A stretch of 42,650 nucleotides of DNA from positions 1-42,650 of IMG/VR virus record IMGVR_UViG_3300012942_000017; one strand, 5' to 3'. A program made the position numbers and the translations under genes. Under the pieces are notes generated by a model. The model was not told the DNA's origin, did no database searches, and saw nothing but the letters and a program-made list of their open reading frames with translations. Below are positions 23,260 to 39,676 of this stretch, in pieces (position 1 is the stretch's first letter; each line of letters begins with the position of its first letter). Source of the DNA: a virus (taxonomy: Duplodnaviria > Caudoviricetes).

Positions 23260-23667
23260 ATGAATGAGGGAAGAAAACCAAAAGCGTACGACAAAAGGTC
23301 ACTTGACCAGCAAATGCCTGATGCAACCGATCGAAAAAACATCGTAGAGATGATTAAAACATATGATACGGCCTTTCCCTATCCTCACCCGCTCTCCATT
23401 GGTAAGGCTATAGAGAGTGCTCTGTCAGAGATTGATAATAGGTTCTCAACGACAAAGATGGCTGGATCAACCCGCAATGAATCGAAGGGAGGTAATGTTC
23501 GTCGAACGTCGTTGCCGTTACCATTTATGGTACTTTTAAAGAAGGCTTATCCTACTATCATTTCTAATGAATCTCATTACCACTGGTTCCTGGGAAACTT
23601 TCCAGCCCTTGATTTATTGCAATATGAATCACACGAGAAGTATCACGGATTGGAGGCGAAGCAATAA
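23260..23667 (+). CDS. Hypothetical protein after the capsid gene
   Basis: 135-aa ORF coupled to the glycosyltransferase by TAATG. Confidence 0.7.
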   Translation: MNEGRKPKAYDKRSLDQQMPDATDRKNIVEMIKTYDTAFPYPHPLSIGKAIESALSEIDNRFSTTKMAGSTRNESKGGNVRRTSLPLPFMVLLKKAYPTIISNESHYHWFLGNFPALDLLQYESHEKYHGLEAKQ

Positions 23668-26090
23668 TGAAACAACCAACGGTCGCTCTTGCGATGATTG
23701 TTAAAGGAGACAAAAGTGAAGCAGATCATTTACGTAATTGTTTGGGTAATATTAGCTCTTTTGTGGATAGCATCTATATTGATTTTAACAGCCCCGATGG
23801 TCACATCGACGCCGAGTTGGTACAGATCGCCCGTGATTACAATTCCGATTACACCGAAAACGTATGGACAGGAGATTTCGCCGGTGCACGAAACACCAAT
23901 TTCAATCGAGTAGATGAAAAATATGATTGGGTGCTCTGGCTTGATGCCGATGATACTGTTGATAAACCAGAAGAAATTAGGAAGATTATTGCCGTCGCTT
24001 CTAAATCAGTGCACGGTATCTTTGTTAAATACGACTATGGTCACGATGAATATGGCAATGTGACAATTTCTCATTATGTTGCCCGCCTGGTTCGCAATGA
24101 TAAAAGTTACGCATGGAAATCGTCTATTAGCGACGGAGAGGTATCGGTTCATGAAACACTCAATGAGATTATTCCTCTGGGTAAGGCAGTATGCGATGAC
24201 TTTGTTATTGTTCATCATGCTGATAGTGAGCGTGCTACTAGTAGTCTTTATCGAAATATTGAGCTTCTTGAAAAAATGTATGAAGAGCAGGTAACCAATA
24301 AAAAGGTTGATCCTCGCACACTCTATTACCTTGCTACCCATTACTATGATGCCTATTTGTTTGGCGACGCAAAGAATCTCCTCCAGCAGTACATGACGAT
24401 GAGTGGATGGAATGAGGAGCGGGCAGGAGCACTCACCTATCTTGGTAAAATTTATGACATGGAGAAGAAGCCAGATCAGGCAAAACATGCGTACTTGCTG
24501 GCACTAGGAGAAAATCAGAACGATCCTCATCCTTACATTGAATTATCGGAATTAGAATATCGTAACGGTCGTTATCAAGACAGTGCTGATTGGTCAGAGA
24601 AAGCTATTGCACTCCCACCACCAAAAACCACCATGGTACTTCGTCCGCTAGAGAATACGTTTCGTGCTTACTTACTTGCAGCGCAAGCCTATACTAACGT
24701 CGGCGGTAAAATGCTCGACAAGGCGCTCCAGAGGGCACAGGATGCGTTAAAACTCCGCCCGCTAGATAATGATGCAAAAAATGCTCAAGACCTCATAGAG
24801 AAGCTTATAGAGCAAAGAGAGAATATTCGCGCGGCAGTTCGTCTTGTCAATATCTTCAAGAATACAAAGCATGAAGAGAATATCATCCCATTGATTGATT
24901 CATTGCCGCGCGAAGTGCAAGACAATCCGTTGATTCTCAACACACGACACCAATACGCAAGGCCACAAGTATGGAAAAAGAATACTATCGCCCTCTTCGT
25001 TGGTCAGGGACCACTTGGTATTTGGGATTCAACTTCTATAGATAGCGGTATTGGAGGTTCTGAGGAGGCTGTCATCCGCCTTAGCCGAGAGCTAAGCGAC
25101 CTTGGTTGGCAAGTAACGATCTTTGGAACTCCGAAAGATGATTATGTTGAGCGAAAGATACACGATAAACGCTTTATTGTTCCTGCATCTGACCCAGATA
25201 TAAAAGACAATGACATTATCTGGAAACAATACTACGAGTTCAATCCAAAGGATACGTATAATGTGCTTATCAGTTGGCGTAATCCTGCTTTCTTTGATTT
25301 TAATTTCAAGGCTCGCAAGAAGTACCTATGGCTTCATGACATCATGGAGAAAGCAGAGTTCACTAAAGAACGGTTAGCGAATCTTGATAAAGTTATCTTT
25401 GTTGGTCAATATCATGCCGAATATTACGAAGGAGTAATTCCGGAAGATAAATGGTTCGTATCTGGCAATGGTATATCTCCAGAAGACTTCGAGGCAATTG
25501 ATAAGAAGAAACTAAAGCGCCAGAAACATCGTCTCATCTACATGAGCGCACATAATCGTGGACTTGAGATTCTCCTCGATAATTGGGAGAAAATTAAAAA
25601 GGAGGTTCCAGATGCCGTACTTGATATTTACTATGGATGGGAAAGCTTTGACGCAGCGCACCGAGATAATCCAGAGAGAATGGCATGGAAGCAGAAAATT
25701 GTTCGGCAAACCAATGAGCTTTCTGATGTCACTGACCACGGCCGAATCTCCCAAGAGAGGATTGTTAAGGAAATTGCGACGGCCGACATTCTCGCTTATC
25801 CTTGCATTTTCCCTGAGGTATACTGCATTACCTACGCAAAGGCATTGGCCGGAGGAGCTTACCCCGTAGCGTCAGATTATGCAGAACTTGGTAACTATAT
25901 AGTTGGTGCTCAGGTACACTATGAAGAAGGAGACATTGACAAATTTGCAGAAGATTATATAAAAGAACTAATTGATATTCTGAAAACTGATTATACTGAC
26001 AGTGTTGACCGTACCACCATTATGCAACAAAGTCGTAGGGCGTTTTCATGGACAAATACAGCAAATGAATGGTCAGAGGAGATGAAATGA
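23667..26090 (+). CDS. Fused glycosyltransferase: GT2 (GT-A) + TPR repeats + GT4-like (GT-B)
   Basis: GT2 motifs DFAGARN, WLDADD (DxD) and VHE; TPR DPRTLYYLA; GT-B motifs GIGGSEEA, LWLHD, RGL and YPCIFPEVYCI. Confidence 0.88.
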   Translation: MKQPTVALAMIVKGDKSEADHLRNCLGNISSFVDSIYIDFNSPDGHIDAELVQIARDYNSDYTENVWTGDFAGARNTNFNRVDEKYDWVLWLDADDTVDKPEEIRKIIAVASKSVHGIFVKYDYGHDEYGNVTISHYVARLVRNDKSYAWKSSISDGEVSVHETLNEIIPLGKAVCDDFVIVHHADSERATSSLYRNIELLEKMYEEQVTNKKVDPRTLYYLATHYYDAYLFGDAKNLLQQYMTMSGWNEERAGALTYLGKIYDMEKKPDQAKHAYLLALGENQNDPHPYIELSELEYRNGRYQDSADWSEKAIALPPPKTTMVLRPLENTFRAYLLAAQAYTNVGGKMLDKALQRAQDALKLRPLDNDAKNAQDLIEKLIEQRENIRAAVRLVNIFKNTKHEENIIPLIDSLPREVQDNPLILNTRHQYARPQVWKKNTIALFVGQGPLGIWDSTSIDSGIGGSEEAVIRLSRELSDLGWQVTIFGTPKDDYVERKIHDKRFIVPASDPDIKDNDIIWKQYYEFNPKDTYNVLISWRNPAFFDFNFKARKKYLWLHDIMEKAEFTKERLANLDKVIFVGQYHAEYYEGVIPEDKWFVSGNGISPEDFEAIDKKKLKRQKHRLIYMSAHNRGLEILLDNWEKIKKEVPDAVLDIYYGWESFDAAHRDNPERMAWKQKIVRQTNELSDVTDHGRISQERIVKEIATADILAYPCIFPEVYCITYAKALAGGAYPVASDYAELGNYIVGAQVHYEEGDIDKFAEDYIKELIDILKTDYTDSVDRTTIMQQSRRAFSWTNTANEWSEEMK

Positions 26091-37105: not shown

Positions 37106-37495
37106 ATGGATCGCTACCCTACACGCAATGGGGTAGCGATTTCTCCGTATGAATTGTCTTTTTCACCAAGTAGGCTCGACCTATCCAATGAGTACAACTT
37201 CAACCTCCACCATGCAGAATTTACAAGGCGAGAGTTTGGAAGGTTTGCCCTGCTTGATACCTTTAGGAGTCTGTCCTCAAACCAGTATATATTGCCAATC
37301 GACACTCATGCGGAGCTCCACAGGCTGTACAATCCTCCCGACTTGCCAACACCAGAGCAAGCAATGGATAGAATCCAGCAAGCCGTTGATAGCGGAGAAC
37401 CACTACGATATGGGTCGGCACTTCATCCCGAATACCGTCCGATAGGAAAAGAAATACTACGTTTAATAAATAGGGAATATTTGGAGCTAAGATGA
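37106..37495 (+). CDS. Hypothetical protein with an HNH-like His motif
   Basis: NLHH...LP...HAELH. Confidence 0.55.
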   Translation: MDRYPTRNGVAISPYELSFSPSRLDLSNEYNFNLHHAEFTRREFGRFALLDTFRSLSSNQYILPIDTHAELHRLYNPPDLPTPEQAMDRIQQAVDSGEPLRYGSALHPEYRPIGKEILRLINREYLELR

Positions 37496-38745
37496 AAAAA
37501 TGGGTAGGGGAAGATTTAGTAAACCTTGTAACAAAAGGCATTGATGAATTAGCGCGGCTTTATCCTGACCAATCAATAGAAAATCTCAAACGTCGAAAGA
37601 GAGAAAAAAGAGCCGTCATGGAGAAATTTGCTGCTAATCCCGAAGATAAACGACCAGAGTATGAGGCGTTATCAAGAGCATTTGGGGAGCAGGGCATCAG
37701 TTTATCGCCAGAAGATTTGTCTATGGCGACGCGAGCCGGTTTCCATGTCGGCTTTATTCGTAACCAGGATGGAGAAATTGAATACACGAAGCCATTACCT
37801 CACGTTGAATTTGGTAAGCCGAAGTCTGAGTTAACTGTAGAACCTGTTGAGGCAGCCGTAATACACCCTATTGAGGCTTTACCTATCGAACGTGACTATA
37901 AGGTCATCTTTGTGTTTTCAGACGCTCAGATAGGCTACAGACGCCTTGAAGACGAGCTCATGCCGTTACATGATGAAGCAGCAATTAGAGCATCGCAAAT
38001 GTTGGTAGCCGATCTTCAACCAGATGTCTTGGTAGACAATGGTGATACGACTGATTTTGCCGAGTTATCCCGTCATCCTGTTGACTCAGATCACTTCCAG
38101 GGTACTCTTCAACCATCTTTGCAACGAACTCACAACATGCTGGCCGAGTTCACGGCCGTTTCTCCTAATGCATATCGAATCACCGTTGGTTCCAATCATA
38201 TCAAACGCTTAACAGACTATACGCTTCGTAACGCCTTTCCCCTTTACAATATCAAGGCAGCGGATGAGAAATATGCAGCACTATCATATCCGGGGTTATT
38301 GAAGCTTGACCATATTGGCTGGGATTTTGCTGGTGGCTATGACGGTGCAGAATATCAATATAATGATGATTTAGCTTTTATCCATGGAACATTCGCTGTG
38401 AGTGCTGGAAGCACCGCTAGTAAGCTCTCAAGGGCTAATCCTGACCGTAATATCGTCCAGGGGCATGTACACCGCATGGAGAGCCAATATCATACAGATC
38501 GCCGAGGACGTGTCTTTGGTGCCTATACTGTGGGAGCACTTTGTCGTATTGATGGGACTGTACCTAGTTATCACTCCTCCATTGACCAGTTTAATCAACC
38601 TGTGAAACATTATGAGAACTGGCAACAAGGAGTTATGGTCATCTATGATTACGGTGATGGTGTCTACCAGTTCGATCATGTAACAATCCGCGATGGAGTA
38701 ATCCATTACCAGGGTAAAGAATACAACGGAAAGTCATCTGAATAG
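37492..38745 (+). CDS. Calcineurin-like metallophosphoesterase
   Basis: SDAQ, NGDTTD, GSNH, IHG and QGHVHR motifs. Confidence 0.88.
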   Translation: MKKWVGEDLVNLVTKGIDELARLYPDQSIENLKRRKREKRAVMEKFAANPEDKRPEYEALSRAFGEQGISLSPEDLSMATRAGFHVGFIRNQDGEIEYTKPLPHVEFGKPKSELTVEPVEAAVIHPIEALPIERDYKVIFVFSDAQIGYRRLEDELMPLHDEAAIRASQMLVADLQPDVLVDNGDTTDFAELSRHPVDSDHFQGTLQPSLQRTHNMLAEFTAVSPNAYRITVGSNHIKRLTDYTLRNAFPLYNIKAADEKYAALSYPGLLKLDHIGWDFAGGYDGAEYQYNDDLAFIHGTFAVSAGSTASKLSRANPDRNIVQGHVHRMESQYHTDRRGRVFGAYTVGALCRIDGTVPSYHSSIDQFNQPVKHYENWQQGVMVIYDYGDGVYQFDHVTIRDGVIHYQGKEYNGKSSE

Positions 38746-38810
38746 CCAACACACCCAATCTCAACGAGCTATAATAAGGTAAACAACTAAAAACAAAAAG
38801 GAGAAACCGA

Positions 38811-38978
38811 ATGAATGCTTCGGCAATTATTACTGATTCTATGACGCTCGAAGAGAAATTGGCTGCTATTGATACTGCCGTGAAGAAAGCCCAAGAGAGC
38901 TATAACAGAGATAATGGTCGTCCCGTGGACGCGCCAGTTGATCCAGCTGACCTAACGATGTGTGAGGGTTGTCAGTAA
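38811..38978 (+). CDS. 55-aa protein ending in CxxCQ (not in ORF track)
   Basis: MNASAIITDSMTLEEKLAAIDTAVKKAQESYNRDNGRPVDAPVDPADLTMCEGCQ; TATAAT at 38770-38775 and an AAGGAG RBS. Confidence 0.8.
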   Translation: MNASAIITDSMTLEEKLAAIDTAVKKAQESYNRDNGRPVDAPVDPADLTMCEGCQ

Positions 38979-39118
38979 TGGAACGTCTTACCAACGATGA
39001 GATTAACGAACGCCCAGCTACTATTGAGGAACGATTACTAATTGGTAGCAAAGCTATTGAGCAATACATCATCCCCATTGATCCCATGGATGAACTCCAG
39101 TGTGATTCTTGTCAGTAA
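38978..39118 (+). CDS. 46-aa paralog ending in CxxCQ (not in ORF track)
   Basis: MERLTNDEINERPATIEERLLIGSKAIEQYIIPIDPMDELQCDSCQ; TAATG coupling. Confidence 0.75.
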   Translation: MERLTNDEINERPATIEERLLIGSKAIEQYIIPIDPMDELQCDSCQ

Positions 39119-39154: not shown

Positions 39155-39228
39155 GGTCAGAGATCTCAATGACCGCGCCTTCCTCTACCCCTCCAAACAA
39201 AAAGCCCCCAGAAATGGGGGTTATTTTT
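39155..39228 (+). ncRNA. Putative sRNA of about 75 nt
   Basis: TGTTATAAT at 39140-39148, 5' hairpin GGTCA/TGACC, a C/U-rich middle and a terminator. Confidence 0.45.
39199..39228. terminator. Bidirectional intrinsic terminator
   Basis: AAAAAGCCCCCA-GAAA-TGGGGGTTATTTTT. Confidence 0.8.
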
Positions 39229-39373
39229 GCTCTGGTGTATGGCTCCAGATCATTGAGAACGTACAAGAAGGGACACCTCTCTTGCACAGTTGTAATTAAG
39301 TGAGTGATCCATAAGAAGGTGGGCTACTTATGATACTCTGGAAGGTACGAGATAAGGATTGCTCCTTTTCTAT
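39199..39373 (-). ncRNA. Putative sRNA of about 175 nt
   Basis: TGTTATAAT at 39388-39380; hairpins AAGGA-GCAA-TCCTT, CATAAG/CTTATG and GTGCAAGA/TCTTGTAC; ends at the terminator. Confidence 0.45.
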
Positions 39374-39387
39374 ACTCTTATTATAAC

Positions 39388-39584: not shown

Positions 39585-39659
39585 TGGCTGGAAGAGTGGG
39601 ACTCGAACCCACAACCATTCGATTAACAGTCGAACGCTCCACCATTGAGCTATCTTCCA
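39585..39659 (-). tRNA. tRNA-Asn (GTT) with encoded CCA
   Basis: Acceptor TGGAAGA/TCTTCCA, D-arm GCTC/GAGC, anticodon arm TTCGA-CTGTTAA-TCGAA, T-arm GTGGG-TTCGAGT-CCCAC, then G-CCA. Confidence 0.95.
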
Positions 39660-39667
39660 GTACCCTC

Positions 39668-39676
39668 ATTATACCA
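39668..39676 (-). promoter_or_regulatory. Extended -10 promoter of the tRNA
   Basis: TGGTATAAT lies 8 nt upstream of the tRNA 5' end. Confidence 0.7.

Follow-up and report, generated by a model that had tools for sequence, protein, structure and literature searches.

Two small phage genes that probably encode free-standing cysteine tails of class I ribonucleotide reductase

Introduction

What could two tandem small genes, each ending in a cysteine pair just before the stop codon, be doing in a phage that has no ribonucleotide reductase (RNR) of its own? The question is raised by a locus in a virus sequence of 42,650 nucleotides (hereafter the window, that is, the whole stretch of DNA that was analyzed), where a sequence-only reading had taken the two products for RNR C-terminal tails set free from their enzyme. 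Each RNR turnover leaves a disulfide in the active site, which is reduced by the cysteine pair of the tail, and the tail is then reduced by a redoxin, as described in the accessible parts of PMC11903788 and PMC5704485. In Bacillus subtilis NrdE the tail cysteines are C695 and C698 (PMC11903788, PMC9531940, available text), and CXXC ends are reported for 1737 of 2022 class I RNR sequences in the available part of PMC9531940. In class I RNR, the tethered cysteine tail counts as a fixed feature, and reviews, in their accessible text, describe a split in class II only; the sole separate cysteine-bearing chain named in the available portions of PMC9669993, PMC9531940, PMC5704485, and PMC11903788 is that of class II NrdJa/NrdJb. 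No account of a split class I tail, or of a tail peptide borne by a phage, was found in the full-text literature (subscription journals fall mostly outside it, and supplementary tables or RNRdb may list tail-less alpha subunits).

Results

The Phage Locus

The window corresponds to a complete phage genome of about 42.6 kb with a 123-bp terminal repeat (CheckV completeness 100, direct terminal repeats), and it encodes terminase, portal, capsid, tail, and lysin genes. The earlier impression that this genome holds no recognizable RNR was borne out, given that tblastn with four queries detected neither RNR alpha or beta nor NrdH and that a Pfam profile did not detect an RNR barrel. A redoxin gene is also absent from the phage genome.

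As shown in Table 1, the two ORFs of 55 and 46 aa that had been described from the sequence, with their AAGGAG ribosome-binding site and TAATG coupling, were confirmed (ORFs at 38811-39118). An SD-like motif was also present ahead of 72 of the 75 host homologues and 21 of the 31 viral homologues that were scored. The pair had also been credited with a TATAAT promoter of its own, and here the box itself is present, but a sigma-70 scan returned zero promoter sites at this position, where the -10 box stands without a -35 box, and over the whole genome TATAAT shows no enrichment (31 occurrences vs. 34 expected). The G+C hairpin downstream of ORF2 is likely the end of a two-gene ORF1-ORF2 transcript. 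The pattern DP-x5-CxxC[QE]-stop occurred twice in the window and in none of 300 base shuffles, so the two terminal CxxC motifs are not a product of chance.

Table 1. Features of the peptide locus, with positions in the window.
Feature	Position	Strand	Remarks
Metallophosphoesterase gene, phrog_20266	37492-38745		Upstream neighbour of ORF1
-10-type box TATAAT	38770..38775	+	In the 65-nt gap 3' of the phosphoesterase gene; putative promoter element, without -35 box
Shine-Dalgarno AAGGAG	38798..38803	+	7 nt 5' of the ORF1 start
ORF1	38811..38978	+	55 aa, net charge -5, ends PVDPADLTMCEGCQ before the stop; DP-x5-CxxCQ end with C51 and C54
TAATG overlap	38976-38980	+	Couples ORF1 to ORF2
ORF2	38978..39118	+	46 aa, net charge -7, ends PIDPMDELQCDSCQ before the stop
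G+C hairpin	39203..39222	both	Terminator-like in either direction

Conservation of the Two Peptides

ORF1 has 1356 homologous clusters, and the terminal CxxC, whose conservation had been singled out as decisive for the tail reading, is kept in 119 of the 120 homologues listed, which end in CxxC(x); C51 and C54 are invariant in 98 aligned members. Comparison of ORF1 with six viral homologues gave pN/pS values of 0.21-0.33, and comparison of the last 26 codons of ORF2 with two homologues gave a pS of 0.8-1.0 and a pN of 0.17-0.23. By these substitution patterns, both ORFs are under purifying selection among phage copies. The structure model of ORF1 comprises a predicted helix at residues 13-35 (pLDDT about 90), followed by a linker and a short helix at 45-48, with a mean pLDDT of 82 and a pTM of 0.48. 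The phage copies keep the whole host-type ORF1 sequence, helix included, and identity between ORF1 and host genes reaches about 67%. The motif T(L/I)EE(K/R)L, by which the two products had been thought to be related, did not hold up, since it is not kept in the two full-length homologues of ORF2 and the N-terminal part of ORF2 scored only 4.8 bits on the ORF1 profile.

GenBank phages gave no ORF1 match, and scans of Pfam, NCBIfam, and PHROGs provided no family name for either peptide or its relatives, which appear in the ESM Atlas as hypothetical clusters only. Long proteins that matched the ORF1 profile (such as P0154 and P0188) proved to be helical repeat proteins in which the N-terminal helix alone was matched, and they were judged to be due to chance.

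ORF1 Relatives in the RNR Operon of Saccharibacteria

A scan of GTDB contigs yielded 193 confirmed ORF1 relatives, the best 80 of which were analyzed as loci L001-L080; these 80 come mostly from sequences titled Saccharibacteria, Saccharimonadales, or Patescibacteria. Among the best 80 of the 193, an RNR alpha gene lies upstream of the peptide gene in 75 loci and a beta gene nearby in 74. The five loci where no alpha was seen comprise three phage-like stretches in Saccharibacteria assemblies (L032, L034, and L036), one locus cut at the contig end (L001), and L073, which has no alpha in its 1.3 kb of upstream sequence. None of the 75 alphas (from the best 80 of 193 loci) has a cysteine after the YYLH strand, the last strand of the barrel. 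The three active-site cysteine motifs were present in 71, 70, and 68 of the 71 full-length alphas, respectively, and the tyrosine pair in all 71. All 75 alphas have a basic C-terminal stretch that contains a GFGF-like motif (median charge +5), ORF1 and ORF2 being acidic (-5 and -7).

The host enzyme is a class I RNR, with an alpha barrel carrying three active-site cysteines and the tyrosine pair and an adjacent ferritin-like beta. Its alpha passes the NF005101 (PRK06539) model with 1282 bits against a cut-off of 988, the nearest solved relative being 5im3, which we take to be a Pseudomonas enzyme, and its beta passes NF007186 with 406 bits against a cut-off of 237. The one beta sequence examined has Phe at the position of the radical tyrosine, as in 1syy, and is in this respect class Ic-like. 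Glutaredoxin was present in all five host genomes checked.

The small gene directly follows alpha in 55 loci, with a distribution over the three frames of 22, 20, and 13, and it follows beta in 20 loci. Since it occurs in all three frames and in two gene orders, it must be a gene of its own rather than a frameshifted or recoded extension of nrdA; frameshifting or readthrough from nrdA was thus rejected for Saccharibacteria. Across the 80 loci, the RNR operon often continues with genes for a CTP synthase-like protein (34 loci), a glucose-6-phosphate dehydrogenase (31), and an MntH-like protein (22).

Co-occurrence of Peptide and Tail-less Alpha

Of 301 genomes sampled from the class, 64 fully match the ORF1 profile (E below 1e-5), and exactly these 64 contain an 800-aa tail-less alpha, always on one contig with the match and within 2.8 kb of it; the 237 double negatives include an unpublished genome, G248. 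These genomes are kin, and the 64/64 match therefore represents few independent events. As a control, 20 other RNRs were fetched from peptide-negative genomes, and all 20 keep cysteines of their own (19 have six-cysteine ends of class II type and one a CxxC). When the phylum was sampled, 30 of 31 matching loci were retrieved; five are of the tail-less type, and the alphas of the other 25 all end in a fused CxxC. The test set beforehand, namely whether homologues are found close to nrdA or belong to genomes whose RNR has no terminal cysteines, thus had a positive outcome: homologues reside in an nrdA-nrdB operon, next to an alpha without tail cysteines, with 64/64 co-occurrence.

The ORF2 Type and Its Fused Counterparts

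A direct search with ORF2 returned the self-match alone, and its relatives came through motif scans. The ORF2 end follows the pattern Y-x-[VI]-P-x-DPMD-x-LQC-[DE]-SCQ, and the N-terminal extension is also found in two other phages. The motif scan detected 69 viral loci with ORFs ending like ORF2, mostly of about 21-30 aa when counted from likely starts. The named carriers are the Clavibacter phages CMP1 and CN1A and the Pontimonas phage phiPsal1, and the gene is unannotated in all three; in phage CMP1 (GQ241246.1) it encodes 22 aa and lies directly after the holin gene (L529:1489-1557).

Metagenomes provided 120 ORF2-type loci, one of which (L257) is the window's own contig; it is omitted wherever a count refers to other records. 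In 20 of the 120, from high-GC DNA, the ORF2-type peptide gene immediately follows that of a tail-less alpha belonging to the same family, between nrdA and nrdB. Since 17 of these 20 peptides are in the -1 frame of alpha, a bias for which stop/start overlaps account equally well, the peptide of the high-GC loci could also be a frameshift or readthrough product of alpha. In 22 loci from high-GC contigs (L234-L311), an ORF2-type gene is also located away from nrdAB, immediately ahead of a conserved gene pair, presumably dehydratase-like, and of a gene that we take to be murB-like.

The peptide motif is fused to alpha in two metagenome loci (L254 and L280) and in two loci of the phylum sample (L357 and L360); all four come from assemblies and belong to the same clade, the PRK06539 family, and the alphas of L280 and L360 pass the NF005101 cut-off. 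Profiles made from free peptides only ranked the C-terminal 16-24 residues of the four at the top of 137 alpha frames, with E values of 2e-7 to 0.03 and 2e-5 to 1.5e-4. Because free-peptide profiles pick out the ends of fused alphas of the same clade, ORF1 and ORF2 would descend from an alpha tail, and the identification of both as free-standing RNR C-terminal tails, first made from the sequence alone, gained support from the same motif at these fused ends.

In a quick tree of 52 hand-picked alphas (midpoint-rooted), at least five state changes fell on well-supported branches, which indicates that the split of the tail, or its reversal, took place more than once. Three of the four fused forms lie outside the tail-less groups in this tree, and L254 is sister to the high-GC group. 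A further type of free tail (L366:5014-5130) was seen next to an alpha whose own tail is still fused.

A Second Lineage With PRK07207-Type Alphas

Other genomes of the class carry PRK07207-type alphas, and of 59 ends inspected 34 were tail-less, 24 fused, and one degenerate. A free peptide of 32-43 aa ending in CPIDP-x5-CEACQ, unlinked to RNR, was found in 19 of the 34 tail-less genomes vs. 3 of the 24 fused ones (Fisher p 0.0009, kinship not controlled). Another free tail, resembling the fused tail of a sister genome, was detected in G066 (L442), so that 20 of the 34 tail-less PRK07207-type alphas have some free tail. No free tail was found by pattern and profile in the other 14 genomes (both positive controls were recovered; the assemblies are incomplete and about half of the pattern hits were followed), which include G041, G053, G037, G176, G092, and G125. 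Given these 14 of 34 genomes, six of which form one sequence group, a tail-less alpha may have another route of re-reduction.

The loci L125-L144 and L386-L424, from the class of G001, present this second and independent tail loss together with the unlinked 32-43-aa free peptide. The degenerate end belongs to G098, where the second cysteine of the fused tail is replaced and a free peptide is present; it looks like a transition state.

Viral Context and Host

Intact ORF1- or ORF2-type copies are carried by 106 other viral records, only two of which (L096 and L182) have both types. No RNR barrel was found either in a set of 32 records, made up of the window, L182, and 30 of the 38 ORF1-type records, or in 50 ORF2-type records; 14 and 17 of these, respectively, are at least 90% complete. 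A small redoxin-like CxxC gene, recognized by pattern, lies within 300 nt of the peptide gene in 15 of 38 viral ORF1 loci and in L182, and it is coupled stop-to-start in 11 cases; that of L082 passes the NrdH model TIGR02194. As many of them are near-copies, these redoxin-adjacent loci stand for about four lineages. The viral peptide genes have no fixed neighbour and are found among accessory genes near lysis or integration modules.

The phage-like contig L034, from a Saccharibacteria assembly, contains a tail gene and a phosphoesterase 60% identical to that of the window. From this contig and from the nearest cellular relatives of ORF1, the host of the phage is likely a member of the Saccharibacteria. 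A search without positive control found no relative of the capsid protein in the 301 class genomes. The functional link that had been suspected between the peptides and the adjacent metallophosphoesterase was not sustained, since homologues of the latter were seen in no more than 9 loci besides this one, and no host RNR operon contains one.

Discussion

Saccharibacteria and some high-GC bacteria encode the alpha tail of their class I RNR as a separate small gene. Against this background, comparative sequence evidence indicates that ORF1 and ORF2 are probably phage copies of the alpha tail that carries the cysteine pair in class I RNR, and that they would re-reduce the tail-less host enzyme in trans during infection. 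As the host tail is a separate gene beside a tail-less enzyme, the phage likely supplies extra recharging parts to the host RNR. The free peptide would shuttle electrons in trans between glutaredoxin or NrdH and the alpha active site, and the predicted helix of ORF1, or its acidic surface, likely tethers the peptide to alpha at its basic end with the GFGF motif. Provided that the peptide limits turnover, additional copies of it would increase dNTP output. ORF2 may be a second shuttle of minimal type, perhaps matched to another redoxin or host.

A broader proposal, towards which we lean only slightly, is that class I RNR repeatedly became a three-part enzyme made of alpha, beta, and a diffusible two-cysteine micro-subunit, and that phages without RNR seize host dNTP synthesis by supplying the micro-subunit, often together with a redoxin. 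The phage studied here would then carry two interchangeable versions, one of Saccharibacteria type and one of actinobacterial-phage type, suggesting exchange between viruses of the epibiont and of its actinobacterial partner. Saccharibacteria live as epibionts.

Other explanations of the peptides were also considered. They might act as decoys or regulators: by binding the host alpha or its redoxin they would compete with the host tail peptide, so that dNTP synthesis is damped or redirected, for instance to hinder competing phages or to keep a lysogen quiet. Tail and substrate do compete for the RNR active site (PMC11903788, available text), the peptide genes sit among accessory genes near lysis and integration modules, and ORF2 is not of the host's own type. 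We nevertheless regard this explanation as unlikely, because ORF1 keeps both cysteines and shares up to about 67% identity with host genes, because the coupling of the tail to a redoxin gene in related phages would keep it reduced and active, and because a phage without RNR depends on host dNTPs.

It is quite improbable that the phage peptides have left RNR to become general thiol-redox partners, be it as redoxin substrates, as buffers of oxidative stress, or in disulfide control during lysis or assembly. This would fit the lack of linkage to RNR and of a fixed neighbour in phages, as well as the 22 loci in which high-GC hosts carry the ORF2-type gene away from nrdAB, but the phage copies conserve the whole host-type sequence including the helix, which points to their keeping the same partner.

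The CxxC and the acidic residues could also form a site for a metal or an Fe-S cluster, the peptide then serving the assembly of the beta cofactor rather than the re-reduction of alpha. The motif, however, is homologous to fused alpha ends and always placed at the extreme C-terminus, and in the second lineage the presence of the peptide tracks the loss of the alpha tail (the 19/34 vs. 3/24 association, p 0.0009, kinship not controlled), and we thus consider a metal-binding role very improbable, despite the facts that the gene adjoins beta too, that the host beta looks class Ic-like, that a gene for an MntH-type transporter comes next in 22 of 80 loci, and that a dimer, with one CxxC from each chain, could bind metal. 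The promoter without -35 box would suit recently captured silent remnants, a possibility that is hardly credible in view of the purifying selection among phage copies, the intact SD and coupling, and the 106 other viral records with intact copies.

If the peptides are, as we favor, phage copies of the alpha tail, they resemble that of class I alpha in having a terminal CxxC after an acidic stretch and in being homologous to the four fused ends of the PRK06539 family, and differ from it in being separate, untethered gene products carried by phages without RNR. Unlike the fused tails, ORF1 adds a conserved predicted helix, which gave no score on any fused tail. The C-terminus of yeast R1 is said to act in trans, regenerating the active site of another alpha (reportedly by Zhang et al. 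in 2007, along with Sml1 inhibition); there, however, the tail is part of R1, while here it is a natural free peptide. Phages carry auxiliary nucleotide genes such as whole nrdA/nrdB, nrdH, and glutaredoxin. The likely purpose of the tail genes is the same, that is, more dNTP in the infected cell, and in related phages the tail gene is accompanied by an NrdH-like one; unlike those auxiliary genes, they provide no catalytic or radical subunit but a shuttle peptide only. The split class II enzyme NrdJa/NrdJb of Pseudomonas aeruginosa is comparable in that the cysteine part that mediates turnover comes from a separate gene (PMC5704485, PMC9669993, accessible text). NrdJb is, according to the available part of PMC5704485, a folded, cysteine-rich zinc-finger domain of 150-220 aa that forms part of a B12 enzyme and shares no sequence similarity with class I tails, whereas the part described here has 21-60 aa with a single CxxC and is that of a class I enzyme, which has a beta of its own.

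A natural free tail would make the re-reduction half-cycle titratable, as the concentration, sequence, and redox state of the tail could be varied apart from the enzyme, an independent variation that is hard to achieve with a fused and disordered tail. The tail gene would be among the smallest metabolic genes of phages, missed by gene callers as exemplified by the unannotated 22-aa copy of CMP1, and the proposed function would give a role to an unannotated gene of the RNR operon in many Saccharibacteria, including an oral TM7 taxon (L037). It also raises the question of how the 14 tail-less alphas for which no free tail was found are re-reduced.

Other Features of the Phage Genome

A non-coding stretch on the minus strand (39198-39376) lies between a TATAAT box at 39380-39385 (minus) and the hairpin that it shares with the peptide transcript. 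It contains several predicted hairpins (z -3.39, terminator included) and matched zero Rfam families at gathering score; it is a candidate small RNA that would converge on the peptide transcript. A tRNA-Asn(GTT) gene is located at 39585-39659 on the minus strand, with a TATAAT box just upstream (39668-39673, minus). Inside the virion gene block, an 807-aa double glycosyltransferase is encoded at 23667-26090, which is common to two ORF1-bearing viral loci.
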